From an uncultured archaeon (lineage in GTDB: Archaea > Aenigmatarchaeota > Aenigmatarchaeia > CG10238-14 > EX4484-224): a stretch of 54,340 nucleotides of DNA. The translations under genes and the position numbers were made by a program. The stretch is taken from positions 4,554 through 58,893 of the forward strand of contig CAZGBT010000005.1 in the NCBI GenBank assembly GCA_964524025.1, read 5' to 3'. Below the pieces are notes generated by a model. It was given only the letters and a program-made list of their open reading frames with translations, was not told the DNA's origin and did not search any database. Positions 8,443 to 46,877 of the stretch are shown in pieces; position 1 is the first letter of the stretch; every line of letters starts with the position of its first letter.

Positions 8443-8556
8443 CCCCCGGTAGCTCAACGGTAGAGCGTCCGGCTGTAGGCGAGTACGGCTGTACTTGCTG
8501 GTAGCCGGTGCTCGACAAATACCGGAAGGTTCCGGGTTCGAATCCCGGCCGGGGGA
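8443..8556 (+). tRNA. tRNA-Tyr(GTA) with 42-nt intron at 37/38 (8479-8520)
   Basis: C1:G72 acceptor; TCCGG-CT-GTA-G[intron]A-CCGGA; relaxed BHB motif. Confidence 0.93.
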
Positions 8557-11370: not shown

Positions 11371-14300
11371 ATGAAACTGGCTCATGTATTTTTTGATGGT
11401 AGATTTGTTGGCTATACAGATAAACCTGAAGAATTAGTTAAAAAAATTAGAGAACTAAGAAGAAAAGGAGAGATATCTTATCAAGTTAACGTAGCATACC
11501 ACAAGCATTTAAATGAAGTTAGAATATTCACAGATTCAGGAAGAGTAAGGAGACCGTTAATAATTGTAGAGAATGGGAAATCAAAATTAACCAAAGAATG
11601 GATAGAAAAGCTGAAAAAGGGCAAAGTCACTCTAAAAGATTTGATAAAGAATGGTATTATAGAATTCCTTGACGCAGAAGAAGAAGAAAATGCTTTTATC
11701 GCCCTAAAAGAGGATGAAGTAACAGAAAATCATACACATTTAGAAATTCATCCCTCAACAATTCTCGGTTTATCAGCCTCCCTTATTCCTTATGCTGAAT
11801 TTAACAGAGGCGATCGCGTAAATTATGGAGCTAAAATGGCTGGGCAAGCTATTGGCATGTTTTCCCTTAATTATCTTAGAAGAACTGATACAAAATCAAA
11901 CATTCTGTTATACCCACAAAAACCGCTTGTGCAAACTTTTGGCCACAAATTGATAAAATACGAAAGAAAACCCGCTGGAATTAATGTTACAGTTGCCTTT
12001 ATGCCATTCATGGGCTATAACATAGAAGATGCACTAGTATTTAATAAGGCTTCTATAGAAAGAGGACTTTTCTGGAGTTATATGTTCAGAACCTATACTG
12101 CAGAAGAAAAAAGGTATATGGGAGGACAAGAAGATGTTATCGGCATTCCTCAGCCTGGAATTAGAGGCTATGCTGGAGAAGATGCTTACAAGCATTTGCC
12201 AGAAGACGGAATAGTAAATCCAGAAACTGAAGTCAAAAGCGACCAAGTCTTAGTTGGCAGGATTTCACCTTTAAGATTTTTAGGATCTATAGATAGATTT
12301 ATAACTGGCTTAGAAAATTTAAGGGAAACTTCTATAAGGCTAAGGCATGGTGATAAGGGAATTGTAGATAGAGTTATTATAACAGAAACAGCCGACGGAA
12401 CGAAGCTTGTTAAAGTAATAGTCAGGGATTTGAAAATACCAGAAATTGGTGATAAGTTTGCAACGAGACATGGACAAAAGGGAGTTATAGGATTGGTGGC
12501 GTCACAGGAAGATTTGCCCTTTACGGAAGATGGTACAATCCCAGATATAGTATTCGACCCACATGGGATTCCTTCTAGGATGACGATGGGAAATTTATTA
12601 GAAATTATAGCGGGTAAAGTTGCCGCTCTTTCAGGAAAAATTTTATTTTCACCTCCGTTTTCTCCGATCGAGGAGAGAGAAATTAGAAGAAAACTTAAAG
12701 AACTTCATTATAGGGATGATGGAAAAGAAACTATGTACGAAGGGATGACAGGAAGGCTTTTACCATGCAGAGTTTTTATAGGAAGTTGCTTTTACGAAAA
12801 ACTCGACCATCTAGTTTCGAACAAAATTCATGCAAGAGCAAGAGGACCTGTTACTTTATTAACTAAGCAACCGACTGAGGGAAGGAGCAAAGAAGGAGGG
12901 TTACGATTAGGTGAAATGGAAAAGGACTGTTTGTTAGCTCATGGTGCTGTAATAACTCTTAAAGAAAGATTCGATTCTGATAAAGCTTTATTCCCAGTAT
13001 GCACAGAATGCGGCCTAATCGCTGTCAAAGATCATATAAGAAAGAGGGTCTATTGTCCGGTTTGTGGGGAAAGCAAGATAAGTTGGATAGAAATGAGTTA
13101 CGCTTTCAAACTAATGTTAGATGAACTCAAATGTATGTGCATCTATCCAAAATTAATAGTCAAAGACAATACAGTAGAGAAGATCGAATTTAGCATCCTA
13201 AGCCCCGAGATGATAAAGAAAATGGCAGCAGCTAAGATAACAAAGCCAGATCTTTACGATGAAGAGGGTTATCCTATCGAAGGTGGAGTAGTAGATCCAA
13301 GATTGGGTGTTGTAGACCCAGGTTTAAGGTGCAGAACTTGTGGCGGTAATATGAACGAGTGCAATGGACATTTTGGTTATATAGAATTAACAAGACCTGT
13401 GGTTCATGTTCTTTATGTAAAATTCATTTTGTTCTTACTTAAAATCTTCTGCAGGAAATGCGGAAGGATATTAATTGAACCAGAAGATATCAAAAAACTG
13501 CAAGAAAGGAAAATTACGCTTAAGGAGCTTGTTAAAAAAGTAAAGAAAGAATGTCCTTATTGCAAAGCTAAGCAAAAGAAGATAAAATTAATTAAGCCGT
13601 ATACGTTTGTAGAAGAAAATAGATTTTTAAACCCAATCGAGATTAGAGAAAGATTGGAAAAAATATCAGATGAGGATTTGAGATTACTTAAACTAGGAAA
13701 ATTTAGACCTGAATGGCTTATATTAACCTTATTACCAGTTCCGCCAGTTACTGTTAGACCATCAATTACATTAGAAACTGGAGAAAGAAGCGAAGATGAT
13801 TTAACTCATAAGTTGGTTGATATAGTTAGGATAAATGAGAGATTAAGAGAAAATATAGAACTTGGCGCTCCTGACTTTATTATTGAAGACCTATGGGAAT
13901 TATTACAATACCATGTAGCAACTCTTTTCGATAACGAACTAACTGGAGTTCCTCCAGCGAGACATAGGTCTGGGAGACCTTTAAAGACATTGACTCAAAG
14001 ATTAAAAACGAAAGAAGGAAGGTTTAGAGGTAATTTAGCGGGAAAAAGAGTTAATTTCTCTGCAAGAACGGTAATAAGTCCAGATCCCATGATTGAATTA
14101 GATGAAGTTGGTGTTCCTGTAGAAGTAGCAAAAGAATTAACAATACCTGTTAGGGTAACAAAAGAAAATATAGAAGAACTAAGAAAGCTTATTTTGAACG
14201 GCCCTAACAAGTGGCCTGGCGCTAATTACATTATCAGACCAGATGGTAGGAAAAAGAGAATAACAGATTTGAATAAGGAGGAAATAGCAAAAGAAATAGA

Positions 14301-15660
14301 CGTTGGTTATATAGTTGAAAGGCATTTGCAAAATGGTGATATAGTTCTTTTCAATAGACAACCAAGCCTGCATAGAATGAGCATGATGGCACATCGCGCG
14401 AGAATTATGCCATTTAAGACATTTAGACTCCATCTCTGTGTTTGTCCTCCTTATAATGCTGATTTCGATGGAGACGAAATGAATTTGCATGTACCGCAAA
14501 CGGATGAAGCGAGAGCTGAGGCAGAAATGCTTATGATAGTTCATAAGCATATAAGAAGCCCAAGATTTTCTGGTCCAATCATCGGACTAATAAGAGATTA
14601 TATAGCTGCTCTTTACCTTTTAACCAAAGATGAAACAAAGCTTGATAGAAAGAATTTCGTGAGACTTATTAGGTTTGTAGACAAAGAAATAGAAATACCA
14701 AAGAAAAAAGTAATGAGCGGTAAGGAAATTTTCTCTTTATTTTTACCGAAAGATTTTTCAATAGAATATAGGAATAAAAGTGGTGAACTTGTTGTCATAA
14801 AAAGTGGTAAACTAATAAAAGGTGTTATAGACAAAGCAGGCGTAGGAGCTGAAAGTGGGAAAATATTAGATAAATTGGAAAAAGAATACGGACCTAAGGT
14901 TGTATGTGATTTTATGTCCAAAATTTCGAGGCTTTCTATTTATTTTTTGACGCTTTACGGTTTTTCCATTAGTATTTCAGACCAAGATTTGCCTATAGAA
15001 GCAAGAAAAGCAATCGATAGTATAATAAAGAAAACTGAAAGAGAAGTTAACAAATTAATAGAAGAATTTGAAAGAGGCGAACTAAAAGTATTAGCCGGTA
15101 GATCCCCAAAAGAAAGTTTAGAGCATGCCATCAAGATTGTATTAAGGAATTGTTTAAATGAAGCACAAAAGATACTAGTAAAATTCATGAAAGAGAATCC
15201 AACCCTCATAATGGCAAAAAGTGGGGCTAGAGGTGATATAGTAAATATTTTACAAACAGCGGCATTAGTTGGTCAAGAAATGATAATGGGTGAAAGAATA
15301 GAAAGAGGATATTATCACAGAACGTTTCCTCATTTTAAGATAGATGATATGAGCCTAGAATCAAAAGGTTTTGTTAGACATGGCTTTAAAGATGGGCTTA
15401 CACCATTTGAATTTTTCTTCGACGCCATGAATTCAAGAGAATCTTTGATGGACAAATCGCTTAAAACAAGACATTCTGGTTATATGGAAAGAAGACTAGT
15501 AGGCGCTTTAGAAGATTTAAAAGTAGAATATGATGGTACTGTTAGAGATGCTTCTAAAAGGATTATCCAATTTTTAGCTGGAGAAGATGGATTAGATCCT
15601 TCTAAAATAAGAAGAGGTGGTATAAATGTCAGAGAGATCGCAGCTAGATTATTTGGGTAA
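11371..15660 (+). CDS. rpoB1-rpoA1: Fused RNA polymerase subunits B' (Rpo2C) and A' (Rpo1N)
   Basis: aa 1 to ~599 carry [12 protein letters not shown] and GGLRLGEME; aa ~600-1429 carry [18 protein letters not shown] and [10 protein letters not shown]; no stop between them. Confidence 0.93.
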
Positions 15661-18520: not shown

Positions 18521-21500
18521 ATGAAAAAGTCAATGATAGAAAGGATCAAGGAAGTTATGAAACATCCAGAAAGAATTAGAAACGTCGCTACAAGTTCACA
18601 TGTACACCATGGAAAATGTGTAGATCCCGATTCCCTTATTTTTACTCTAGAAAAAGTAATAAAAGCTAAGGAATTGTTTGAATTGGCAAAAAGATATGGA
18701 AAGCCAATTAAGAAAACAAGAGAAGAAGAAATTTATGAAATTTCCAACCTTAACCTGCACACTCTTTCGGTTTCAAATAATGGAATTGAAATAAGAAAAA
18801 TCGTCTATGCTTGGAAACTCTTCAACGAAGATCCGCTAATAGAGGTACAACTATTGGATGGGAGGAAGGTTAAGGTAACTCCTATGCATAAGTTTATTTG
18901 CTTTAAAAATGGAAGATTTTGCGAAATAGAAGCAAAAGATTTAAAGATAGGAGACAGGGTTTTGGCCCCAAGAAAAATATTAACCAAAGAAATGAGTTTA
19001 GATGATATTAAAAGACTTTTCCTAGAAATTTTAAGCAAAGACTATGGATTTTTAGTTTACTTAGAGCCAAATTTTGGAAAGGAGTTGCATAAAAAAATAA
19101 TTCAAAATGGTAGGAAACAAATTTGGAGGACGATTGGTTCGAAGCTTAAATTTTTATCGTTTTACCACGGGGTTTGGAGGGGGAGATATAGGCTTAGGGA
19201 TTATGTTAGGCTGCTCGAAATATTTGGTTATGATAAGGCTTTTGGATACGAAAAAATTGAAAAGATTAGTTATAGAAAGGGTCTAAAAAGATTTGGAAGC
19301 AGAACTTCTAATAAGTTAAAGATTCCAAAAACCTGGCAAGAATTTTTAGAGTTATTTTATTTAGTTGGAGCATTATTTGGTGATGGTAGTGTAAACCTAA
19401 CCTTTGACAACGAAAATGATCTATTGCTTAATAGGGTTTCCGAAATTTGTAAGAACGTGTTCAATATTGATTGTACTCTCAAAAAGTATAAAGAAAGATG
19501 CAAAAGGCTTTACCTAAACGGCGGCTTAACTCTTAAGAAAATCTTCCAACATCTTTTCCTTTACAAGAATAAAGAAAAATCAAGAAATTTAGACTTACCA
19601 AATTATTTCTTCAACTTACCATTGTCTATTGTTTCTATGTTTCTAAAGGGTTATTATGATACCGATGGCTATGTTCATCAACAAGTCTGTTTAACTTCTG
19701 CTAGCAAGGAAATCATAAGAAAGCTTCAGCTCTTATTGTTAAGGTTCGGAATTTTTTCGTACATAAGAGAGAAGAATGGTTATTATTATCTGAAAATTTC
19801 AGGAAAGACGCACTTAAATTCTTTCGAGAAGAACATAAGTTTTTCGATTCCTTATAAAAACAAGAAGCTTCTTATGTTAGTATTAAATGCTTCTTATTCG
19901 AAAATATATTCGAAAGCGATTGATTTGGGGTACTTTCTTGCAATCCCTGTTGCTAGTATAAAAGTTGTAGATAATGTAAGAGAAGTTTATGATTTTACAG
20001 TTGAAGGAACACACAACTTCATTGCTGATGGATTTTTTGTTCACAACACAACTCTAACTGACAATTTAATGGCAGGGGCAGGAATGATAGCAGAAGAATT
20101 AGCAGGAAAAATCATGTTTACATGGTTCGATGAGCAAGAGAGAAAAAGACAACTAACAATCTATGGAGCAAACGTATCGATGGTCCACAATTATAAAGGT
20201 AAAGATTATCTTATAAACCTTGTTGATACACCTGGGCATGTAGATTTTGGTGGTGATGTAACAAGAGCTATGAGGGCTGTTGATGGAACTATTGTTTTAG
20301 TATGTGGTGTAGAAGGAGTAATGCCACAAACAGAAACTGTTTTTAGACAAGCGTTAAGGGAGTATGTCAAACCTGTTTTATTCATAAATAAAGTTGATAG
20401 GTTAATTAAGGAATTAAAGTTAACTCCAGAGATGATGCAAAAAAGATTCGAAAAAATAATCAAAGACGTTAACGATTTAATAAAAAAGTATGCACCAAAA
20501 GAATTTAAAAACGAATGGTTAGTAAGCGTTAAAGATGGTAGTGTAGCTTTTGGGTCTGCATTTAAGAGGTGGGCAATTTCCATACCATTCATGCAAGAAA
20601 GTGGCATTACATTTAAGGAAATTATTAAACTAACGCTTGAAGGGAGAGAGGATGAACTAGCTAAATTAGCCCCCTTACATAGAGTGGTTCTTGATATGAT
20701 AATTAAGCACTTACCATCGCCTGTAGAAGCGCAGAAATATAGAGTACCAAAAATTTGGTCTGGTGATGTAAATAGCGAAATTGGAAAACAAATGATAAAT
20801 TGTGATGCAAACGGAAGGCTTGCAGCCATAGTAACAAAAGTTGTTCCAGACCCGCATGTTGGATTTGTCGCTACAGTTAGAATTTTCTCAGGTAAATTGT
20901 ATAAAGGAAAAGATGTGTTTTTGGTCTCGCTAAATAAGAAAAGAAAAATTCAACAAGTAGCTGTCTATAAAGGAATTCAAAGAATACCAGTAGAAGAAAT
21001 AGTAGCTGGTAATATAGCAGCTGTAGTGGGTATACCTGAGGCTTTTACAGGAGAGACAGTTTGTGATGCGGATTATATAATAGAACCGTTTGCTGAGATA
21101 AAGCATTTATTCGAGCCTGTTGTCACAAAATCTATTGAACCAAAAAATCCAATGGAACTTACTAAATTAGTTGAGGCTTTAAAGAAGATTGCAAAGGAAG
21201 ATATAACCTTGCAAGTTAAAATAAACCAAGAAACTGGCGAATACTTAGTTTCTGGTTTAGGCGAGTTGCATCTAGAAGCTAAAGTAGAGAATAAACTCAA
21301 AGAGATGGGAATTGATGTAATAATGTCAAAACCTATTGTTGTTTACAGAGAAACTATAACCAAAAAATCTCCAGTAATCGAAGGGAAGTCGCCAAATAAG
21401 CACAACAAACTTTACATAACTGTAGAACCACTGGAAGAAGGTGTTTATCAAGCTATGCTTAATGGAGAAATCCCAGATTGTATAGAAATAAAGAAAAAAC

Positions 21501-22144
21501 GCTTAGATTTGTTTAAGAAATTAGCCGAATGCGGGATGCCTTATGATGAAGCAAAAAACGTTAAAGTTATTCACCATAAAAACGTTTTTATAGATCTCAC
21601 AAAAGGTGTACAATTTTTGAACGAAGTCATCGAAATGATAAAAGCTGCTTTCAAAGAAATAATGGAAGAAGGTCCTCTCGCTAAAGAACCTTGTACAAAG
21701 GTTAAGGTAAAGCTTATAGATGCAGAACTTCATGAAGATCCAGTTCACAGAGGTCCAGGGCAAATAATGCCAGCAACTCGTTATGCTATAAAGAAAGCAA
21801 TGCTTTCTGCAGGTATTCAATTGCTTGAGCCAAAACAGATAATTAGGATAGATACGCCTAGCGATCTAATAGGAAACGTTATAAGGGAAGTTGAGAGGAG
21901 AAGGGGTCAGATTCTTAACATAAGCGAACATGAAGGGGCTACCGTTGTAACAGCAAAAATACCTGTTAGCGAAATTTTTGGTTTTGATGCAAGCCTAAAA
22001 TCGGCTACCAGTGGAAGAGGTTTTTACAGCTTAGTCGATATAGTTTTCGAAAGGCTTCCGCAAGACTTATTCACTAAAACTGTTTTGGAAATAAGAAGAA
22101 GGAAAGGAATGAAAGAAGAAATACCAACCCCTGAAAGTTTATAG
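18521..22144 (+). CDS. fusA: Elongation factor EF-2, intein-containing
   Basis: DTPGHVDF, NKVD, GLGELHLE and HEDPVHRG (diphthamide His retained). Confidence 0.96.
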   Translation: MKKSMIERIKEVMKHPERIRNVATSSHVHHGKCVDPDSLIFTLEKVIKAKELFELAKRYGKPIKKTREEEIYEISNLNLHTLSVSNNGIEIRKIVYAWKLFNEDPLIEVQLLDGRKVKVTPMHKFICFKNGRFCEIEAKDLKIGDRVLAPRKILTKEMSLDDIKRLFLEILSKDYGFLVYLEPNFGKELHKKIIQNGRKQIWRTIGSKLKFLSFYHGVWRGRYRLRDYVRLLEIFGYDKAFGYEKIEKISYRKGLKRFGSRTSNKLKIPKTWQEFLELFYLVGALFGDGSVNLTFDNENDLLLNRVSEICKNVFNIDCTLKKYKERCKRLYLNGGLTLKKIFQHLFLYKNKEKSRNLDLPNYFFNLPLSIVSMFLKGYYDTDGYVHQQVCLTSASKEIIRKLQLLLLRFGIFSYIREKNGYYYLKISGKTHLNSFEKNISFSIPYKNKKLLMLVLNASYSKIYSKAIDLGYFLAIPVASIKVVDNVREVYDFTVEGTHNFIADGFFVHNTTLTDNLMAGAGMIAEELAGKIMFTWFDEQERKRQLTIYGANVSMVHNYKGKDYLINLVDTPGHVDFGGDVTRAMRAVDGTIVLVCGVEGVMPQTETVFRQALREYVKPVLFINKVDRLIKELKLTPEMMQKRFEKIIKDVNDLIKKYAPKEFKNEWLVSVKDGSVAFGSAFKRWAISIPFMQESGITFKEIIKLTLEGREDELAKLAPLHRVVLDMIIKHLPSPVEAQKYRVPKIWSGDVNSEIGKQMINCDANGRLAAIVTKVVPDPHVGFVATVRIFSGKLYKGKDVFLVSLNKKRKIQQVAVYKGIQRIPVEEIVAGNIAAVVGIPEAFTGETVCDADYIIEPFAEIKHLFEPVVTKSIEPKNPMELTKLVEALKKIAKEDITLQVKINQETGEYLVSGLGELHLEAKVENKLKEMGIDVIMSKPIVVYRETITKKSPVIEGKSPNKHNKLYITVEPLEEGVYQAMLNGEIPDCIEIKKKRLDLFKKLAECGMPYDEAKNVKVIHHKNVFIDLTKGVQFLNEVIEMIKAAFKEIMEEGPLAKEPCTKVKVKLIDAELHEDPVHRGPGQIMPATRYAIKKAMLSAGIQLLEPKQIIRIDTPSDLIGNVIREVERRRGQILNISEHEGATVVTAKIPVSEIFGFDASLKSATSGRGFYSLVDIVFERLPQDLFTKTVLEIRRRKGMKEEIPTPESL
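18617..20047 (+). mobile_element. 477-aa intein with LAGLIDADG endonuclease in the EF-2 P-loop
   Basis: HGK|CVDPDS...VTPMHKF...GALFGDG...GYYDTDG...YDFTVEGTHNFIADGFFVHN|T. Confidence 0.95.
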
Positions 22145-23470: not shown

Positions 23471-23607
23471 CTTTTTATTTTTTTAATTCTTCCTCACAAT
23501 TTGTTTAAATTTTTTGATACCATCTCTGAATTTGAACTTCCTTAGATTTTTTCTCAACGCTTCCTCTTTTTCAAAAAAATTTTTAAGGCTTAAATTTTCA
23601 GAAAAGG

Positions 23608-24489
23608 CTAAATCTGCAAAAATCCCTCTTTATAGAGTATATAAGAATTGCAATAATGCTCTATATGATTTGGTAATGGTATTAAAAGCATAGGTTTTTT
23701 GAATTGCAATGCCAAAGCTATATGACTATAGCTTGGTGTTCCTATAAATCCTTGCAGTTCTTCATTAGGCAAACAAATTTTTCTAGGGTATCCATTCATA
23801 TGCAATTAGATTAGGAATGTTTGTAGGTACGCCTAACCAGCCTTTAGAAATCACAAATGTTTCGTTAGGAAACCTGCGTATTTCGCTCAGAATCTTTAAA
23901 AGAATCGAACGACCACGTAATGAATCTCCAATTGACACTACATTGCTCTTTATAACAGATGTTGGGGTAAAAAGTCCTATATTTTCCATCAACTTATAGG
24001 AAGGAAAAATGATGTGAAAACTATCCTAGCTCTTCTCTTCGCAATGCCATATAGTTTAGATAGAAGTAGATAGCTTACTTTTAACTTTAAATTATTACGC
24101 AAAAAGCTCGGTAGTTTGTTAAAATCCTCTAGGACACTGAAAACATTCTGAAGCAGAATACATTTTATCTTACTTTTAGAGGAAGCGGCAACACTAGCTG
24201 GTTCTGATTCGCTTATAATAATTCATAGCCAAATTTTTTGAATATCGTAGAAAACCTTTTTTACCATGATTTTGTAGACCATGTAGTTATAAGGAATGTG
24301 GAAAGCTAAGTCCAGCCAATTCTTTCCTTTAAACTGAAATGGTAAAAGAAAGGATCTTATACCACGTTCAAGGAAAAATTGATGTGCCTTTTGATTATAT
24401 GTAAAAATCTCACTTGTGATTGTCTTTGCTATAATAAACGCCCTCTCTGCATGACCAAAGCCGTAACAAAGTTCGCATATAGCAATCAT
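23608..24489 (-). pseudogene. Frameshifted GT-B glycosyltransferase (GT28/MJ1255-like)
   Basis: Colinear fragments in different frames: CYGFGHAERA; IISESEPASVAA..IKCILL; NLIAYEWIP; ALALQFKKPMLLIPLPNHIEH..N. At least 3 frameshifts; 3' boundary approximate. Confidence 0.7.
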
Positions 24490-27416: not shown

Positions 27417-27584
27417 GTGCCTTATACACCAACTAAGGTTAAATGCCCTAGATGCGAAAAACTTATACCTAAACATGTTTTAAAAGTTACTAATGGTAGA
27501 TGTAACAATTGTGGATATTTGATAGCGTCCCCACTAACAACCTTCTTCGATAATAATGGCAGAGAGGTCAAAAAAGAAGAATAG
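27417..27584 (+). CDS. 55-aa Zn-finger microprotein
   Basis: GTG start: MPYTPTKVKCPRCEKLIPKHVLKVTNGRCNNCGY...; two CxxC. Confidence 0.6.
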   Translation: MPYTPTKVKCPRCEKLIPKHVLKVTNGRCNNCGYLIASPLTTFFDNNGREVKKEE

Positions 27585-28422
27585 TTTCCTCAGCTTGAGC
27601 GACCAATCCATTGCTCTTTTCTTTTAACACCGGATATTCCTTCACAATACCTTCTCTAACAAGCTCATATAGGCCGACTTTATAATTACTTACGTTTAAA
27701 ATCCATCGCTCGGTAAATGGCAATGTTTTAAATTCTTTTAATATGAAACGAAGCAAATTTCTAGCAGCTGACATTCTTATAGGTTTTTCCTTAATTAGTG
27801 AAAAAATCGTACCTGGATAAGAATCTTTAACCCACCCAAGGCCGTTTGTAACAAACACCTCCATAGCTATAGCCTCTCCTTTTTTAAACTCCCTTTCGAT
27901 ATTATTAATACAATTAGGTATTGTCGGTTCAGCGTGCTGAACATATCTTTTTAAACCATGACCGCACAGATTCCTAACTGGATTAAATCCAAAGCTTGAA
28001 ACAACTTCTTCAACTACCTTAGAGACATCACAGACTCTATTTCCTACTTTAATAACCTTTAAAGCTTCTTTTAATGCTTCTTCTGCTGCCTTAATCAATT
28101 CATGGCCTCCTTCGCCAATGCAAACAGTAAAAGCTCTATCGCAAATGTATCCCTCAACGTGCACACCTATATCGATTTTTACTAAATCTCCGTCCTTTAA
28201 TACGGTTTTTTCGTCAATTGTAGGAGTATAGTGTGCAGCTATTTCATTTATCGAAATATTTACTGGAAATGCTGGCTTAGCACCTAGCTCAATAATCTTT
28301 TTCTCTATTTTTTCGGCCAATTCTTTTATATTTATGCCTTCCTTGGCAATCCTTTTTGCAAAGGGAATTACGCGATCAGAAATCTCCATCGCTCTTTTAT
28401 AAAATTTTGCCTTATCTTCCAT
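27568..28422 (-). CDS. map: Methionine aminopeptidase type II
   Basis: AAHYTP, KIDIGVHVEGYICD, NLCGHG, AMEVF, AQAEET. Confidence 0.95.
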   Translation of the reverse strand: MEDKAKFYKRAMEISDRVIPFAKRIAKEGINIKELAEKIEKKIIELGAKPAFPVNISINEIAAHYTPTIDEKTVLKDGDLVKIDIGVHVEGYICDRAFTVCIGEGGHELIKAAEEALKEALKVIKVGNRVCDVSKVVEEVVSSFGFNPVRNLCGHGLKRYVQHAEPTIPNCINNIEREFKKGEAIAMEVFVTNGLGWVKDSYPGTIFSLIKEKPIRMSAARNLLRFILKEFKTLPFTERWILNVSNYKVGLYELVREGIVKEYPVLKEKSNGLVAQAEETILLF

Positions 28423-29233
28423 ACAAACTACCTAATTTTTTCTTTATTTCAAGGTATCTCTTAATACCACTAAGAGTAATCCCATCTTTAAGGTATATAA
28501 AAACTGGAAGGTTTGGTAAGTTTACGTCTGCATCCAATTTCCTTTTTAACGGAACGAATTTAAGGAATTCGCTTATTTCTTTCAACCTCTTTCTAACTAC
28601 AGCAGGACTTAGGTTTAGGTTTCTTGCTATTTCTCTTAAATAACAGCCTGGGTTATTTTTGATAAATTTTACTATAGCTAAAATTTCTTCTATTTCGTTA
28701 GCAAAAGAGGTCTTGCCTTCTCTTTCTTTCACTAAAGCTGCACTCTTATATTTTGCATCCTTGTATCTCCTTTGCCTTTTGGTTAACAAGTCTGGTTCTA
28801 CAAGTAAGTTCTTTATTTCGACTTCTTCTTTAAATCTCAAAAGCTTTGGAAGAGTAGGTAACGGTCTTCCTTCTGCCAAATCTATCGTTTCCAGAAAAGG
28901 CATCATTCTGAGAATGTACCTCCTTACAATTTCGGGATGTAGGTTTAGGTTTCTTGCTATTTCTCTTAAATAACAGCCTGGGTTATTTTTGATAAATTTT
29001 ACTACCTTTTCAAAATCGAAAGTGTAAAAAAATGCAGTCCTCTTATTTATCTTTACTAATCCTTTCTTTCTAGCAACATCCAAAAGTCTATCAGCAGAGA
29101 TATGTGAGAGTTTATCGAGCGCGTAATTTGTAATTTCGATGCTGAATTTCTTTCCTTTTACCACAACCTTGTCTGCCTTCCTTTCTACTATAAGGTTATC
29201 TCCAAATTTTTTCGAAAGCTCTTCTAGTTTCAT
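28412..29233 (-). CDS. Tandem winged-HTH protein
   Basis: Two copies of KFIKNNPGCYLREIARNLNL, each followed by a recognition helix and LP.LP wing. Confidence 0.8.
   Translation of the reverse strand: MKLEELSKKFGDNLIVERKADKVVVKGKKFSIEITNYALDKLSHISADRLLDVARKKGLVKINKRTAFFYTFDFEKVVKFIKNNPGCYLREIARNLNLHPEIVRRYILRMMPFLETIDLAEGRPLPTLPKLLRFKEEVEIKNLLVEPDLLTKRQRRYKDAKYKSAALVKEREGKTSFANEIEEILAIVKFIKNNPGCYLREIARNLNLSPAVVRKRLKEISEFLKFVPLKRKLDADVNLPNLPVFIYLKDGITLSGIKRYLEIKKKLGSLYGR
28610..29004. repeat. Perfect 65-bp direct repeat (28610-28674 and 28940-29004)
   Basis: Identical TAGGTTTAGGTTTCTTGCTAT...GATAAATTTTACTA, 330 bp apart. Confidence 0.95.
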
Positions 29234-29243
29234 AAATAAAATT

Positions 29244-29265
29244 GTGACACGCGTTCTAAAAACTT
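29244..29265 (-). promoter_or_regulatory. Shared promoter-proximal motif, copy 1
   Basis: Minus strand AAGTTTTTAGAACGCGTGTCAC, ending 11 bp before the start; resembles 30176-30196. Confidence 0.45.
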
Positions 29266-29353
29266 TTTTATTAAAAAGATACCAACTTGCCTATGAAGTT
29301 ACTTCTTTCCAGTAGTTAAAAATCTTTATTTCTCTAGTTTTTAATTTTAATTT

Positions 29354-29473
29354 ATGAAACTTACAAAGTTTATGGGAAAACTGCGCGTACCTTGCAAAAA
29401 GTGCGGATCCTTGATAGAAGTTGGACTAGAAGAGAAGTTAAGAAGATGTCCAATTTGTGGAAGTAAGTTATGA
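29354..29473 (+). CDS. 39-aa Zn-ribbon microprotein (loosely Rpo12/RpoP-like spacing)
   Basis: MKLTKFMGKLRVPCKKCGSLIEVGLEEKLRRCPICGSKL. Confidence 0.6.
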   Translation: MKLTKFMGKLRVPCKKCGSLIEVGLEEKLRRCPICGSKL

Positions 29474-30163
29474 AGCGCTTCGAAGCGCTTCAGAGCGCTC
29501 TGAAGCGCCTTTTATCCTAACCCATCCCTCGCCGTTCTTTACGAATCTTTCAATTTCATCTGTCCTTTTTGAAATCTCCGAAAGTAAAGCCCTTATACCA
29601 GAAATAGAACTATACCCTAAATTTCTAGCTAATTCTTTATAACTTATCTCTTTTTTCTCCCTAATCAACTCTAAAACTTTCTGCATACGTGGCGTCAGGG
29701 AAATTTCTTTTCTTATTTCTTCTACCTCCTTTTCTATAGCTTCACGATGGGGCTGGGCCAAATTCTGCGCAACTTCTAAAATTCTAATCAAATGGTAAGC
29801 AATTTTTTCATGAATTTTCTTGGTTGATTCATCGTGTTTTTGTAAAGCAAAAAGAATATCGTCTAATCTCTTTACGACCTCGCTTTGTGCCCACTCTTTG
29901 GTAATAATCTTTTCTTCAAGGCCTCTAACCTTTTCTTCTATCGTCAGTAAAGATTTTCCAGCGTACCCAGCAGCAAAACCTATTGAAAACGCCTCTTTCG
30001 GTTTCTCTTCCAAAACCTCCGATTCAAAGCGCTCTGAAGCGCTTCGAAGCGCTTCAGAGCGCTGTGGAGCGCTCTCTTCTTCCTTCAATTTAAACTTTTC
30101 CTCCAATACTTCAGGCTCACTTTTTCTCTTAAACAATTTTTTCAATTTAGACAGCAAAGACAC
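29468..30163 (-). CDS. Coiled-coil plus C-terminal winged-HTH protein
   Basis: LTPRMQKVLELIREKKEISYKELARNLGYSSISGIRALLSEI wHTH; helical middle region. Confidence 0.8.
   Translation of the reverse strand: MSLLSKLKKLFKRKSEPEVLEEKFKLKEEESAPQRSEALRSASERFESEVLEEKPKEAFSIGFAAGYAGKSLLTIEEKVRGLEEKIITKEWAQSEVVKRLDDILFALQKHDESTKKIHEKIAYHLIRILEVAQNLAQPHREAIEKEVEEIRKEISLTPRMQKVLELIREKKEISYKELARNLGYSSISGIRALLSEISKRTDEIERFVKNGEGWVRIKGASERSEALRSAS
29472..29511. repeat. Array of 4 tandem 10-bp palindromic units
   Basis: GAAGCGCTTC GAAGCGCTTC AGAGCGCTCT GAAGCGCCTT. Confidence 0.93.
30026..30075. repeat. Array of 5 tandem 10-bp palindromic units, including a 36-bp perfect palindrome at 30028-30063
   Basis: AAAGCGCTCT GAAGCGCTTC GAAGCGCTTC AGAGCGCTGT GGAGCGCTCT. 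Confidence 0.93.
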
Positions 30164-30175
30164 ATATTAATTTTC

Positions 30176-30196
30176 GTCACACCGTTAAAAAAACTT
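30176..30196 (-). promoter_or_regulatory. Shared promoter-proximal motif, copy 2
   Basis: Minus strand AAGTTTTTTTAACGGTGTGAC, ending 13 bp before the GTG start. Confidence 0.45.
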
Positions 30197-30597
30197 CAAA
30201 CAAACCTCAAAGAATTCTCACTCTCTTTGCAGCAGAAATCCATTCAAAACCCACACTTCCCAAACTTTAGTGGAAAAGGTCTTTACTGTTTTTGTTCAGG
30301 TAAATTACTATCAGTTAGTAAATACTTCTGCGAACAACTCTCACTTTTTAAATATATCCACTATAAAACAACTAAAAGATAAAATGTAAAATAAAATATT
30401 TTTCATAATAAACACTTTAAGTTAATTATTCACTCTAAAGTATGTAATAAGGTATATTTTTTGGAAAACACGACGAATTTAACGATTAATCGGGGTTAAA
30501 TACAATTTTCTGCTTGATTTATTATTTTTAGAACTATATTAATAAAATAATTCCCTAATTTTTTATTATTAAAAAACAAACAATTTTTTTGAGGAAA

Positions 30598-30625
30598 CTT
30601 TGAGATAAGGAATATTATCTCAAAG
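30598..30625. other. dif-like Xer recombination site
   Basis: CTTTGAGATAA-GGAATA-TTATCTCAAAG: perfect 11-bp inverted arms, 6-bp spacer, inner ATAA/TTAT as in known dif sites; lies in the largest intergenic gap of the window. Confidence 0.75.
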
Positions 30626-30892
30626 CTAACCCCAAACTTGCTTTAAGACCGATAAAACTAGGAATTTAAAAAAAATATGCTGTTTAGATTCTGGATAAGA
30701 GGTTAGCATGGAGTGTTGAAGAATGTAAAGTCACAAAGATAGCTAAAAAATAAGTCAACGGCTTTCTTGAGTTGCAACTTGAGTGGAACTTGCTATCGCC
30801 GACTCTGCGGAAAATACTAAGGTAAAAGTTGTGCAACTTTTTAAAAATCGAAAAGCCAAAGGAGTATATTCACTTTGTAATAATAAATAACT

Positions 30893-32152
30893 ATGACGCT
30901 AATAGAACCCGATAGACGGCTAACAGAAGCATATGGAGAAGCTACATCTTGGTTAGAGGAGTTAGGAGGAGAAGTTATTCCAACAGAAACATTCCCTTCT
31001 TCTTGGCTTACAGAGGATTTCTATAAGTTAATATTAAATCGAGATGTATTATCTTTCCTAGGAATACCTTATAAAGTTGCTGAAGAAGTATATTGCGACG
31101 AAGGTAGTGATAGAAGTATATTTTTACCCAAATATAGTTCAAAGATAGGAGTACAAAATCGTAAGGGTGTTGGGTGCAGAAGTGGGATAGGGCTAGCAAC
31201 GGTGGGATACGACGATGGTGATAATAGACCTTATGGAGGGTGTTCTGCCCCGGCTGCTACATATGAACAAACTATATCAGCTTTAGGAGAATGGAAACCT
31301 AACGAACCATATGTCCAATTTCCTCTAACAACTTTCGATAAGGAAGAAATAAAACTTTCTTTAGTACCGGTTGTGGCTACTCAGAAATTGCCTACCGATT
31401 GGAGCGAGAAACTTCTTCCTGAGGGTGAGAAACCGTTTTGGAGAGGATACTCCGACTATCCAGTAGAACTAGGAATTTTGATAAGATGGTTTCCTCCATA
31501 CCCTATTCGTATATACCGTTTAGGAAGGGCGATAGCAAAGACGATTCCGTATAGGAAAAACAAAGATACTCTTCTACGTTATCTTAACCAAAAGGTGTTT
31601 GTGGAAAATTCGATGAGATCTTGTGCAGATTGGTTAGCAGCTATTTTAAAAGTAGTTAAAAGAAGAGGAAGTGAGTACGAAGCACTCCAACTTTACGAGG
31701 TAGATATAGATAAGGATGGTGTAACTTCTCTCCCTCTTCAACCTGAACTTATGTGGGACGGATTGGAGTTCTCTCTACCTGATTACCATCTTGAAATTGC
31801 AAAGAGAGTACAAGGAAAAATAGTCTTTGTCGACTTAGAAGGCTTTATTCCTGGGGATTATACTCTTTCTTACTTCGGCTTGCTTGCAAGGAAGGAGCGA
31901 GAGGTCAAAAAAGTTTTCTTTGCTGTGGCTGATTTAGCAGCTTTTATAAGAAGCGTTTGGGGCAAAGAAGCATGTATAGATGCCATCGACTTATTTTTGG
32001 AATATTTGAGAGGTTATGGTATTAAAATTTGCCGGGAAAGCGCAACGATAGGAGTTGAAGGAAAATACCCTATTAAAGTTAGGTGCATATTTCTACTCTC
32101 TCCACTTTTTCGCTATTCTTTAACTAACATTTTATTTCGTCTCGAATCGTAA
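30893..32152 (+). CDS. Orphan protein, possibly SelO/kinase-like fold
   Basis: GSDRSIFL..RKGVG..RPYGG..TYE..PIRI..FVDLE; 419-aa open frame. Confidence 0.45.
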   Translation: MTLIEPDRRLTEAYGEATSWLEELGGEVIPTETFPSSWLTEDFYKLILNRDVLSFLGIPYKVAEEVYCDEGSDRSIFLPKYSSKIGVQNRKGVGCRSGIGLATVGYDDGDNRPYGGCSAPAATYEQTISALGEWKPNEPYVQFPLTTFDKEEIKLSLVPVVATQKLPTDWSEKLLPEGEKPFWRGYSDYPVELGILIRWFPPYPIRIYRLGRAIAKTIPYRKNKDTLLRYLNQKVFVENSMRSCADWLAAILKVVKRRGSEYEALQLYEVDIDKDGVTSLPLQPELMWDGLEFSLPDYHLEIAKRVQGKIVFVDLEGFIPGDYTLSYFGLLARKEREVKKVFFAVADLAAFIRSVWGKEACIDAIDLFLEYLRGYGIKICRESATIGVEGKYPIKVRCIFLLSPLFRYSLTNILFRLES

Positions 32153-33317: not shown

Positions 33318-35525
33318 TTACTTAATGAATTCTAGTCCTAAAATCCTTTCTATTTCTTTTTTCTGTTCTTCAGTCCATTTTTTCTCTTTTCCAAAAATTT
33401 GTGGAGATTTTACACCAGTAACAACAACCAAAGTTCTTACAGTTTCTCCCAGCGATTTATCGATTTGAGCTCCCCATATTATTTTTGCATCAGGTGCTAG
33501 TCTGCTAGAAATGGTTTCTACTATTTGTTGGGCTTCTCTTATAGTTAAGTCAGGTCCTCCAGTTATATTTATAAGAGCTCCTCTTCCATTAGTTATATCA
33601 ACCGAGAGAAGAGGATTATTTAAGGCCTTTTGGACAGATTCAAAAGCCCTATTTTCGCTGTCGCTCTCTCCCATTCCAATCATAGCTAAACCACCTTCAT
33701 TCATAACAGCTCTTACATCTGCGAAATCCAGGTTTACAAGACCTGGTTTTGTAACCATTTCAGCAATACCTTTGACAGCATTTACCAAAATTTCATCGGC
33801 AATTTTGAATGCAGTTAAAAGAGAAACGTCAGGAACTATTTCCAACAGCTTATCATTAGGTATAACTATCAAAGTATCAACTGCGTCTTCCAACAATTCT
33901 AAACCCCATCTCGCATTTTCCATTCTTTTCTTACCTTCCATGGAAAAAGGCAAAGTAACGATGGCTACTGTTAAAGCTCCTAACTTTTTAGCAACTTCAG
34001 CTATGACGGGTAAACTTCCTGTCCCAGTATTGTGAACAACGAATCCTTCTGCAATAAAATTATGGCTTCCTTCTACGATTATGTCGTAGACTTCTTTTTT
34101 ACCTATATATTTTACGGATTTAATCCTAGCAAAACCGAAATACTTGAAGAATTCGGCATTTGTTGGGCCCCTATATCCATAAAGGAATCCTAGTCCTCTT
34201 CTCTTTGCTTTTTTGTTTAGATTCTCATCGAGCTGGTAAACTCTGTAAATCCTGAGTGACCACGTGTCGAAGAACCTGGCCTTTTTTGAATTTGGTGGTT
34301 TAATTTTTCTTCTCCTATGCAAAACGTTTCCTGTTCTTAAACCTATACTATCACAAAGCACTTTTAGCTGCCTTATTAATTTCTCACTAGCCATTTCAAA
34401 CCTAAGCTCTACTTTCTCCTTATTTCCCTTCTTAACTCTATAATAACTTCCATCAGCATCAGCCAAACCTAGGATAAATGCTTTTTTCTGGGATTCGGGT
34501 AAACTAAAAACCCAAGTTGGTATTTCTTTTTCTCTTGCTTTCTTATCAAGTCCTAACCTCTCTAATAATTCATAGGCTCTTTTAGAATTGGCATAGAACC
34601 AATTTTTCGATCTTTTAACTTTGACTTTTAGCTTTTTCTCAAGAAGCTTCCTGTAGTACTCATTTTTCTTTTCATCTTGCGATGGTGAGAAAAATACCTT
34701 CCAGCTCTTTTTCGATTTACTAATCCAACCGTCACCTAAAAGAAAGCCAAATAGCCTACAAAATTCTTCATCTGTAAAGCTTCCGTCAGGTAACTTATAA
34801 GGTCTTCCCTCGTCTGGAACCTTCCTTAATATAACAACTAAATCTCCTTCTTTTAGATCTCTAGCCTCTACCCATTCTAATGCAAATTTAGAGAAACGAC
34901 CGTTACTTAAATTGTTAAGTTTAACCACTTTTAAGAATGGATGATCAAAAGATGCGTATAGCGTTCTGTTATTAGTTTTTACTTCGTAAACAGGTTTTAT
35001 TCCAGTTTTCACAGAAGCGAGAACTCTCTTCTTAATCAGTCTGCCATCATTATCTATACAATACACCATACTACCAGGTTTTATCGAATCTATCCTTACA
35101 GGACCCTCAGGATTCGTTAAAATTAATGAATCTCCGACAAGGCATCCTCCGCCGAGGCCTGCAGTTAAAAATACCATATCAGCCCCTTGTAATGCTTTCT
35201 TTATTTCTTCCTTACTTTCCTTGGCAGCCTCCATTCCTAGTTGAGGGTCTGCACCAGCACCTAAACCTCCGGTCAACTCTCTTCCTATAAGGATTTTTTT
35301 ATCTGCATCTGTGTACAGCAAATCTTGGGCGTCTGTGTTGATGGCAATAGTTTCTGCACCAACTATACCAACTTGCATTAATCTAGTAATTGTATTATTG
35401 CCAGCACCCCCTGCGCCTACAACTTTTATCTGAGTTTTCCTTCTTTCAAGAATTTCTCTTAATTCTTCATCTATATCCTTAGTTTTTGATTCAAAAGTGC
35501 TGCTTACAAGGTGCTTTATTCCCAT
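33318..35525 (-). CDS. ftsZ: Cell division protein FtsZ (FtsZ1-type context), intein-containing
   Basis: [18 protein letters not shown]|intein|TGTG, NLDFADV. Confidence 0.96.
34029..35144 (-). mobile_element. 372-aa intein with LAGLIDADG endonuclease in the FtsZ signature motif
   Basis: GGG|CLVGDS...ASFDHPF...GFLLGDG...GLADADG...[20 protein letters not shown]|TGTG. Confidence 0.95.
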
Positions 35526-45691: not shown

Positions 45692-45973
45692 GTGAGGGGA
45701 AAACGCTTAATGAAGTTGTTCTTCCATACTAAACCAGTAAAGATATTATTAGAATTATTAACTGGTCCAAAATACGCAACCATTATAGCAAAAAAAATAG
45801 ATTGTACTTATTCGCATACGGTAAAACTTTTAGATGTTTTTAACGACTATGGGATTGTTAGTTTCGAAAAGAAGGGAAGGATCAAAATAATTAAATTAAC
45901 GCCAAAAGGAGAGGAACTAGCGACTGCTCTTCATAAGTTAGTTTCTTTGTTGGAATCTATTAGGAGAAAATAG
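45692..45973 (+). CDS. Small winged-HTH regulator
   Basis: YATIIAKKIDCTYSHTVKLL...KKGRIKIIKLTPKG. Confidence 0.85.
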   Translation: MRGKRLMKLFFHTKPVKILLELLTGPKYATIIAKKIDCTYSHTVKLLDVFNDYGIVSFEKKGRIKIIKLTPKGEELATALHKLVSLLESIRRK

Positions 45974-46877
45974 TTAAAGCTTCCTCCCCTTTCTTATACC
46001 ATTTTTTAAGTTGGCTCTCTGTATAAAGTTCGTATTCTGTAGCTAAATATCTTGCATGGCCAGCCAACCTATCAACTATAGGTCCTGGCAAGCCTGCAGA
46101 TATAAGTTGCGTTTTGAAAAATTTTCTTAGTACGTGAGGATGTAAATTATATCTTTTACCCACTTTCTTTGAGAAATTCTTAAATGCTTTGCTTAGTATA
46201 AACTGAAGGTTTTGGTAGGACATCTTCTTTCCGCTTTTCGTTGCAAAAATATAAGATTCTTCAGTTAGTTTTTCACCCCTTTTCTTCCTTTCCTCTAAAT
46301 AAAGTTGTAAGTATTTTTTAGCTTCGTTCGTTATGAAAGTTATCCTTCCTTTTCTATGCTTTGAAATAAGAGACTTTACTTTAACCTTAGGTGGGTTCGT
46401 ATTTAAATCCACATCTTTTAACCTCAACTCTAATAGCTCGCTTGCTCTTAATCCTGAAGATAAAAGAAAAAGTATGATAGCTTTAGTTCTTAGATTTGCC
46501 CTAAGCAAAATTTCTTTTAAATCATCTTTTGAAGGAAGGTAATCCTCATGAATAGCATACTGCCTTAGCTTAATTTTTTCCTTTATTTCTATTCCATTTG
46601 CCTCGAAGAACTTTTTTAAAGAAAATGCCCAAGTTGCCACAGTCTTAGGAGCTAAATTCCTTGATGCCATCTTTATTAAAAAATCTTTGTAAAGTTGATT
46701 AGGATCTACAAGGCCTTTCTTTATATCTTCAACCAACTTATCTAAATTGTCAAATTCCATAACTTTTGAAAAATACTTCAGACCTTTTAGGTAAGTATTT
46801 TTAGTGTTAATACTTCTCGTTAAAAGCAAAAGTTCACCAAGCATCCTTTTGACCGAGCTAAATTTTTCTATTTCCAC
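45960..46877 (-). CDS. Tyrosine recombinase (XerA/integrase family)
   Basis: SGLRASEL (R), HVLRK (HxxR), LAGH and a C-terminal Tyr; no flanking mobile-element genes. Confidence 0.92.
   Translation of the reverse strand: MEIEKFSSVKRMLGELLLLTRSINTKNTYLKGLKYFSKVMEFDNLDKLVEDIKKGLVDPNQLYKDFLIKMASRNLAPKTVATWAFSLKKFFEANGIEIKEKIKLRQYAIHEDYLPSKDDLKEILLRANLRTKAIILFLLSSGLRASELLELRLKDVDLNTNPPKVKVKSLISKHRKGRITFITNEAKKYLQLYLEERKKRGEKLTEESYIFATKSGKKMSYQNLQFILSKAFKNFSKKVGKRYNLHPHVLRKFFKTQLISAGLPGPIVDRLAGHARYLATEYELYTESQLKKWYKKGEEALTIFS

Follow-up and report, generated by a model that had tools for sequence, protein, structure and literature searches.

The window analysed here is a stretch of 54,340 nucleotides (contig CAZGBT010000005.1, assembly GCA_964524025.1, positions 4,554 to 58,893 of the forward strand) from an uncultured archaeon of the Aenigmatarchaeota. 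It is part of a 58.9-kb contig in a genome of 869 kb (868,966 bases, 37 contigs, 88.6% complete), and its gene set is archaeal, with a family-B DNA polymerase (PolB), split RNA polymerase subunits, EF-2, EF-1alpha, FtsZ, L11, and Spt5. Near the middle of the window, a site resembling dif lies beside a gene, here called P2, whose own coding sequence contains two arrays of short repeats. On the minus strand between 27.5 and 30.9 kb the genes are ordered methionine aminopeptidase (MetAP; 27568-28422), P1 (28412-29233), and P2 (29468-30163). P1 encodes a protein of 273 amino acids with two winged helix-turn-helix (wHTH) domains (HTH_24, E 5.6e-9), and P2 starts with GTG and encodes 231 amino acids with a C-terminal wHTH domain (HTH_24, E 3.2e-4, slightly short of the Pfam cut-off). 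A 39-amino-acid open reading frame (ORF) of the CxxC...CxxC zinc-ribbon type, Zn39 (29354-29473, plus strand), converges with P2 and overlaps it by 6 nt. Upstream of P2 is an AT-rich intergenic region (30164-30892; 729 bp, GC 0.284) that contains the 28-bp dif-like site (30598-30625) and GTGAGA boxes (30213-30222 and 30338-30344). An earlier note on this DNA had described a perfect dif-like site, two wHTH genes sharing an upstream motif, and a CxxC microprotein, all of which are found here. It had also described two arrays of 10-bp palindromes, which exist, although both lie inside the P2 ORF and not beside the gene. Its statement that the AT-rich region is the only long gap of this kind in the window is incorrect, as the interval 23471-24222 (752 bp, GC 0.320) is another.

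The dif-like site has the sequence CTTTGAGATAA-GGAATA-TTATCTCAAAG, in which two perfectly inverted 11-bp arms flank a 6-bp spacer. It is the sole match in the window at up to three mismatches (mean of 0.01 in shuffles), and it is unique in the genome, where it scores 22 of 22 arm positions and the next best place among the 868,966 bases scores 17. Its arms are identical at 16 of 22 positions to the Pyrococcus abyssi dif oligonucleotide, which is bound and recombined by XerA in vitro (PMC2958812), and the variant in the relative G029 is identical at 19 of 22; this comparison rests on the oligonucleotide, and the dif logos and flanking repeats of the same report may bear on it. At up to three mismatches, six of the 40 relatives have exactly one copy each, with the arms kept and the spacers differing, and the reversed-pattern control gives none. 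A local scan of P2 neighborhoods detected a GAGATAA-type site in 11 of the 26 relatives' loci, two of these sites being weakly symmetric. A variant arm, CGTATAA, occurs in two further loci (one of them a perfect 11-6-11 arrangement), bringing the total to 13 of 26. This second arm type, (T)TCGTATAA-N6-TTATACGAA, is situated 511 bp upstream of P2 in L041 (genome G009) and 669 bp upstream in L052 (G021). In the window and in all relatives' loci with a site, a distance of 435-1112 bp separates the site from the start of P2, always on the 5' side of the gene. This placement, at 0.4-1.1 kb, is kept across three families while the other neighbors change. In most aligned loci, a TATA-like run next to CACTC or CACAC is located 20-50 bp from dif on the P2 side.

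A candidate recombinase for this site, an XerA-like tyrosine recombinase, is encoded 15.3 kb away (45960-46877, minus strand; Phage_integrase, E 1.7e-25). Its best NCBIfam model is recomb_XerA_Arch, matched over the full length (E 2.9e-34, 118.8 bits) and below the equivalog cut-off of 220. Orthologs of this protein, defined by E ≤ 1e-100 and sharing 53-62% identity, are present in 15 of the 40 relatives, plus one partial copy, and a GAGATAA-type site is found in 12 of the 16 relatives with an ortholog versus none of the 24 without. In both genomes with the CGTATAA-type arm, the only Xer-like genes are divergent ones whose identity to the window XerA is about 30%; arm type tracks recombinase type across the relatives. 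Of the 12 relatives in which both site and XerA ortholog were located, 10 have the two no more than 19 kb apart, and in G030 the distance from the site to the start of the recombinase gene is 52 bp. The element thus shows the 11-6-11 organization in noncoding DNA, the single copy, the conserved arms with variable spacer, the likeness to a validated archaeal dif, and the genome-encoded cognate recombinase that characterize archaeal Xer/dif sites. As in the XerA/dif system of P. abyssi (PMC2958812), the 28-bp site has near-perfect arms, is intergenic, occurs once per chromosome, and lies near a skew extreme, and the single XerA-like gene does not adjoin it. The differences are the DPANN-type order, the arm sequence (GAGATAA here versus GATATAA), and a recombinase score below the equivalog cut-off. 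From these sequence comparisons, the 28-bp inverted repeat is most likely the chromosomal dif of this DPANN-type archaeon, on which the XerA-like recombinase, its gene 15 kb distant, probably acts. The dif site itself is a further example of an already known element.

Homologs of the P2 protein are present in 25 of the 40 relatives and in 15 of 25 high-quality genomes (own genome counted). A profile search of 1.84 billion representative proteins returned only 117 P2 matches at E ≤ 0.001, and a distant member of the family is labeled 'Candidatus Aenigmatarchaeota archaeon'. No Pfam or NCBIfam family reached its cut-off for P2, the only indication being the borderline HTH_24 match, and a sequence search of solved structures found no relative (best E 0.037). 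Comparison with the Atlas gave scores of at most 0.86, with MarR/TrmB clusters at 0.85, under the level that counts. An AlphaFold (AF2) model based on a 30-row alignment (mean pLDDT 81.9) predicts a short N-terminal helix (residues 3-12) and a winged helix (158-217), between which a disordered segment (18-54) is followed by long helices (55-153). Foldseek placed NolR, BlaI, MecI, and MarR at the top (E 4e-3 to 2e-2), with matches that cover the wHTH region only, and ArsR-type proteins were also matched. In the prediction, P2 has the fold of the MarR/ArsR-type winged-helix repressors and their dimerization element. A symmetric homodimer formed through the helices is predicted with a score of 0.50, versus 0.01 for the best of three controls; at least 73% of the contacts agree between runs, and the partner pLDDT is at least 76. 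In calibration, the mark was reached by 20 of 30 proteins solved as pairs and by 1 of 23 solved as single chains, counts that are only rough for P2 because the analysis used its own alignment. The 12 residues at the N terminus are amphipathic (median hydrophobic moment 0.705, the 97th percentile within each protein), and their net charge is positive in all 30 aligned members, a pattern that is read, by analogy, as a possible membrane-targeting helix. The fold, the dimer, and the amphipathic helix are all predicted features, and on this basis P2 is interpreted as a dimer-forming, DNA-binding winged-helix protein whose cationic amphipathic helix is attached through a flexible linker.

About 10 of the 117 P2 representatives have, in addition, a C-terminal extension of about 110 amino acids with a conserved PD...E-x-K motif (L039 in genome G040, and P0002, P0011, P0016, P0022, P0026, P0060, P0073, P0074, P0076, and P0078). 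The best fold matches to the model are AF2093, FokI, NucS, and Cdn1-type nucleases (E 4e-5 to 1e-3).

The two repeat arrays are composed of AGCGCT cores at an exact 10-bp phase. The 5' array (30025-30075) has five cores, at 30028, 30038, 30048, 30058, and 30068, and falls in P2 codons 31-46, the part that encodes the linker. The 3' array (29471-29510) has three cores, at 29474, 29484, and 29494, and one degenerate unit; it occupies the last P2 codons (222-230) and begins at the stop codon of Zn39. The spaced pair AGCGCT-N4-AGCGCT occurs six times in the window, never in 100 shuffles, and nowhere else in the genome. The array hexamers occupy all three reading frames. When P2 was recoded synonymously with the codon usage of the window (3000 trials), the mean number of hexamers was 0.31 and the maximum 3, compared with 8 observed, and in nine of nine AGCGCT-type genes the hexamer count was above that of every synonymous recoding. 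A tandem 10-bp unit yields the same 10-amino-acid repeat in every frame, so that the likeness of the N- and C-terminal tail peptides is a by-product of the DNA repeat. These results point to selection on the arrays at the level of nucleic acid and not of peptide.

In the relatives, arrays are situated at the same two positions of P2, and the unit is lineage-specific: the types comprise AAGCGCTT variants, CGATTC/ATCGAT, CGATACGAAT, and AATC-based runs. The 5' and 3' zones of the window share 56 8-mers, versus a mean of 2.9 with the 3' zones of other genomes, and matching ends within one genome are seen at about 14 of 24 loci. The two arrays therefore change in concert between lineages. In at least eight loci the 3' copies are situated beyond the stop codon. 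The repeats are also essentially confined to this locus. In 41 genomes, the pattern AGCGCT-N3-5-AGCGCT was located 31 times, and 30 of these matches are in a P2 gene or within about 0.2 kb of one (reversed control, 0); the remaining match is a pair of hexamers in a Kae1-like gene. In searches of five genomes each, CGATACGnATCGATAC of the CGATAC type gave 21 matches in three genomes, all at P2 loci, and AATCAATCAATCAATCA of the AATC type gave 18 matches in four, likewise confined to P2 loci.

Contigs from four public runs, one of which may be the source of this DNA, reproduce the arrays with no indels listed. These contigs break at the 5' array, as is usual at repeats, and none spans it. No RNA run was listed among the public data for this stretch. 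A 480-nt contig from run X2 (record 7) matches only the 37-nt 3' array (29472-29508) with two differences and continues into unlike sequence with AGCGCT units, and probably represents the same locus, P2, in a related organism.

The repeats might instead be neutral, slippage-prone microsatellites in a disordered linker and tail, with the two ends matched by functionless gene conversion. The location of every 5' array in the low-confidence linker, the wide variation of units and copy numbers among lineages, and the existence of simple 4-nt units would all be expected on such an explanation. However, the feature is kept at two set positions in at least three families despite the turnover of sequence, the 3' copies persist in noncoding DNA, and all other genes in the 41 genomes lack it apart from the two-hexamer match mentioned above. 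Moreover, a 10-bp unit is not a multiple of three, so slippage would shift the frame of P2 and should be selected against. Neutral repeats are thus scarcely probable.

A function of the arrays in RNA also has to be considered, in which a panhandle between the 5' and 3' ends, or local hairpins, would control translation or stability or terminate the convergent Zn39 and P2 transcripts. The 3' and 5' arrays form a 37-nt inverted match that is 95% complementary, and the predicted fold of the window P2 transcript pairs them in a helix of about 33 bp in both the minimum-energy and centroid structures (z -4.3; none of 20 shuffles was as good). Hairpins of the terminator type, with T-rich tails, are also predicted at the arrays, and in 9 of 24 loci the duplex energy between the 5' and 3' zones is better than that of all 100 shuffles. 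In the other 15 loci, by contrast, there is no duplex beyond that of shuffles. The shared 8-mers are only direct in G023 (17 direct, 0 inverted) and G021 (13 direct, 0 inverted), and the G021 duplex is no better than shuffles. Palindromic units, furthermore, make the complementarity of the ends automatic, and hence it does not count as separate evidence. A role in RNA is possible for this genome but does not generalize across loci, and as an explanation of the arrays it is judged improbable.

If the arrays are read as DNA, P2 is the simplest candidate reader, because it is a predicted dimeric wHTH protein encoded by the very DNA that holds the sites; array binding by P2 is thus proposed from sequence. 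Residues at the start of the P2 recognition helix vary with the repeat type: of 84 members with a near-complete core, 50 could be classified, and in 41 of these [IVLM]-S pairs with AGCGCT-type linkers, or E/Q/T-D/N/E with the other repeat types. This relation is a lead, since the link between helix and repeat is inseparable from shared ancestry and only one independent pair falls on supported branches.

P1 and P2 are further connected by a promoter-proximal motif on the minus strand. The pattern GTTTTTnnAACG(n)GTGTsAC has two occurrences in the genome, GTTTTTAGAACGCGTGTCAC at 29244-29263, 10 nt ahead of the P1 start codon, and GTTTTTTTAACGGTGTGAC at 30176-30194, 12 nt ahead of the P2 start codon; the shorter ACG(n)GTGTsAC is likewise present only at these two genes. 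The P1 genes of relatives have ACACGTGT-like palindromes at the equivalent upstream place, and P1 is the more likely, putative reader of this element. Thirteen of the 40 relatives have a P1 homolog, which in 12 cases shares a contig with P2 at a distance of 0.3-4.5 kb. Relatives' P1 proteins have either one domain (frames of 97-103 amino acids) or two (279-307). In the window, P1 contains an internal repeat of 70 nt (28605-28674 and 28935-29004, 97% identical) that codes for the start of both wHTH domains, suggesting gene conversion or a recent duplication. Zn39 was found by profile search as a convergent neighbor of P2 in 11 of the 26 relatives' loci. Its assignment as RNA polymerase subunit P was rejected, the match being 22.1 bits against a cut-off of 89 and covering model positions 11-38 of 53 only, and a stronger RpoP candidate is located elsewhere in the genome (G000:C9:26857-26946). 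Many relatives have GTGAGA(A/G)TT boxes, often two, upstream of P2 (loci L038-L061, between dif and P2); genome-wide, the box is not enriched (14 observed versus 16.7 expected). An Rfam search of 30100-30950 gave zero matches at E ≤ 1. A scan for sigma-70-type promoters is uninformative, the host being an archaeon.

These features could be explained if P1 and P2 were ordinary autoregulated transcription factors, the arrays operators or roadblocks for P2 expression, and the adjacency to dif a functionless consequence of gene order. Such pure autoregulation predicts arrays only at the P2 gene, as observed, and a promoter-proximal motif common to P1 and P2 and found nowhere else in the genome agrees with it, as do the fold matches to MarR, ArsR, and BlaI repressors. 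In several relatives MetAP, PolB, and a 55-amino-acid zinc-ribbon gene are also syntenic with P2, so that local gene order is generally conserved. On the other hand, a regulator that targets only two arrays in its own gene would have no output, and a conserved amphipathic helix and a long stalk are atypical of simple repressors. Likewise, dif has been retained on the 5' side of P2 across three families despite changing neighbors. Autoregulation as the whole explanation therefore seems rather unlikely.

The observations support a conserved dif-linked module consisting of dif, P2, Zn39, and P1. The DNA-organizing module that the earlier note had proposed is upheld in its conserved linkage, arrays included, whereas its likeness to ParB/parS and ParR/parC is one of layout only. 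The co-occurrence of P2 homologs with arrays and an 11-6-11 site, on which the note had made its proposal depend, was also found, in the numbers given above. According to the reading tentatively favored here, which is credited with nearly an even chance of being correct, P2 dimers bind both arrays and thereby form a single nucleoprotein mark that positions, tethers, or insulates the dif region. The dimers would bind the two repeat clusters in their own gene, in the linker-coding part and at the 3' end, so that each chromosome would have one such mark at about 0.5-1 kb from dif. The mark would act on the dif or terminus region by way of the stalk and N-terminal helix of P2, and it would also feed back on P2 expression. 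P1 would be a small autoregulatory wHTH repressor with an operator-like motif common with the P2 promoter, and Zn39 a conserved partner of the module. Membrane attachment of P2, and a role in dimer resolution, segregation, or domain organization, may be envisaged by extension.

The position of the site on the chromosome bears on this reading. In the window, the cumulative GC skew has its maximum at 26-27 kb, 3 kb from the dif-like site, and plus-strand genes switch to minus-strand genes near this maximum, as the earlier note had remarked of the strand switch. On the 786-kb contig of G027, the cumulative GC skew has its maximum in the form of a plateau (290-370 kb), within which the site falls (359.6 kb), and its minimum at 710 kb. 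An alternative role at such a place is that of a replication fork trap, in which array-bound P2 arrests forks near dif in the manner of RTP or Tus. The genes of these terminator proteins adjoin their own Ter sites, and the P2 locus resembles that arrangement: protein and sites form a unit that is unique in the chromosome and adjoins dif, close to the skew maximum in the window and G027, P2 is a predicted winged-helix dimer, and the two site clusters are mutually inverted. A fork trap needs polarity, however, and palindromic arrays have none; no relation to RTP or Tus was detected, either in sequence or specifically in fold, and in neither G027 nor G018 is the Cdc6-like gene placed opposite the locus. 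Fork arrest by P2 is accordingly regarded as highly improbable.

Several observations weigh against the tentatively favored reading of a P2-bound mark at dif. No dif-like site was found in 13 of the 26 relatives' P2 loci, three of which have less than 720 bp of upstream sequence, and 12 genomes have P2 without an XerA ortholog at E ≤ 1e-100. The units are not uniformly 10 bp long or palindromic, as seen in the 12-nt unit of G021 and the AATC-based runs of G015 and G033, and a dyad-symmetric dimer therefore fits them less well. The most divergent P2 genes (genus g6) have no clear arrays in the ORF. The structural matches to P2 are generic wHTH repressors only, at E ≥ 4e-3, and the membrane role of its N-terminal helix is suggested by a sequence pattern alone. 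The GC skew of G027 is weak and noisy, and the Cdc6-like gene is about 196 kb (G027) or 142 kb (G018) from P2 and not opposite to it, so that a terminus location of the dif-like site is compatible with the data and no more. The AT-rich gap was also considered as a replication origin and rejected with reference to these Cdc6-like gene distances, in a check that covered only the relatives G027 and G018.

In its layout, and in its layout only, the module resembles centromere and terminus systems. In ParR/parC, ParB/parS, and AspA of pNOB8, repeated centromere sites are located beside or inside the gene of the binding protein. The P2 locus likewise combines short repeats phased with the helical turn, the gene of a small, predictedly dimeric binder, and a unique position. 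It differs in that the sites are coding sequence next to dif, not an origin, and in that there is no linked ParA-type ATPase. No ParB family is among the Pfam matches of P1 and P2, and P1 and P2 are of the wHTH type, not ribbon-helix-helix as in ParR. The earlier note had stated that ParA and ParM are absent from the window: the contig has no match to the CbiA family of ParA/MinD-type proteins, all ten matches in the genome being on other contigs, and for ParM, which was not sought by family, the statement stands as it was made. AspA is only a generic wHTH fold match to P2 (rank 16, E 9e-3).

Bacterial proteins that act on chromosome regions offer a looser comparison. Noc of Bacillus subtilis has an N-terminal amphipathic helix, and MatP/matS and FtsK/KOPS of Escherichia coli act on the terminus and dif. 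The logic that P2 may share with them, in a functional speculation by analogy, is that a sequence-specific DNA binder links part of the chromosome with the membrane or divisome. There is no homology between them, P2 would have one site cluster per chromosome versus many, and it has no translocase domain. In a more far-reaching version of the scheme, P2 would be the missing spatial regulator of Xer recombination in this lineage, tethered to the membrane or divisome and nucleating on the arrays in its own gene; it would keep dif at the division site and so take the positional role that FtsK, MatP, or Noc have in bacteria. Specificity and arrays would co-evolve quickly enough to give each lineage a private terminus mark, and in some lineages the fused PD-(D/E)xK nuclease-like domain would add DNA processing. 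This version, taken whole, is judged unlikely.

A closer parallel in archaea is found in Thermococcus kodakarensis, in which the wHTH nucleoid protein TrmBL2 builds a boundary for SMC (structural maintenance of chromosomes) on the intergenic DNA surrounding dif (PMC11840125). It is the DNA around dif, and not XerA or the 28-bp site, that recruits TrmBL2 to stall SMC (PMC11840125). Here too, dif is placed in an unusually long intergenic region, and an SMC-type protein is encoded in the genome. TrmBL2 is a genome-wide, filament-forming nucleoid protein (PMC11840125), whereas P2 is encoded beside dif and has discrete arrays in its own gene. The TrmB family (PF01978) is not among the Pfam matches of P2 at E ≤ 0.1, and the wHTH domain of P2 is C-terminal, in contrast to the N-terminal domain of TrmB-type proteins. 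Literature searches turned up no paper connecting DPANN or Aenigmarchaeota to Xer/dif, and none on a dif-linked protein of this kind.

Other features of the window were noted in passing. A plus-strand ORF of 419 amino acids (30893-32152) adjoins the dif gap, in a segment of raised local GC (0.396, 31-32 kb). It has no family, no homolog in the syntenic loci of relatives, and uninformative Atlas matches, and may be a lineage-specific insertion beside dif. The FtsZ gene (33318-35525, minus strand), 2.7 kb from the dif-like site, and the EF-2 gene (18521-22144, plus strand) contain inteins with a LAGLIDADG domain. In the plus-strand ORF at 11371-15660 (1429 amino acids), Rpb2 domains 4-7 (residues 6-597) are joined to Rpb1 domains 1-5 (600-1407), and RNA polymerase subunits B' and A' thus appear to be fused within a single reading frame. 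At the gathering threshold, Rfam reports only tRNAs and 5S rRNA in the whole window. Among them is a 114-nt tRNA (8443-8556, plus strand; 61.1 bits) that ARAGORN did not report and that adjoins the 5S rRNA gene; it is probably an intron-containing tRNA. The second long gap, at 23471-24222, has no accepted ORF and no Rfam family at the gathering threshold.

Archaea have XerA and dif but are not known to have FtsK. For the coupling of archaeal dimer resolution to cell division and chromosome organization, the one worked case, that of T. kodakarensis, implicates a winged-helix protein that works on dif-surrounding DNA (PMC11840125). The general type of the present system, in which repeats cognate to a DNA-binding protein lie at the gene for that protein, is rated as known, and what is rated as unusual is the presence of the repeats in the ORF at both ends, their rapid concerted turnover, and their fixed place beside dif. 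In-ORF repeats that evolve in concert at both ends of a gene represent an unusual case of selection at the DNA level overriding peptide sequence, and the 10-bp units that differ between lineages provide natural specificity swaps. The locus described here is a compact, conserved candidate in very small genomes, combining dif, an adjacent predicted DNA-binding gene with a membrane-type helix, and genome-unique cis-repeats, and as such it may be part of the way in which chromosome replication is brought to its end in these cells.

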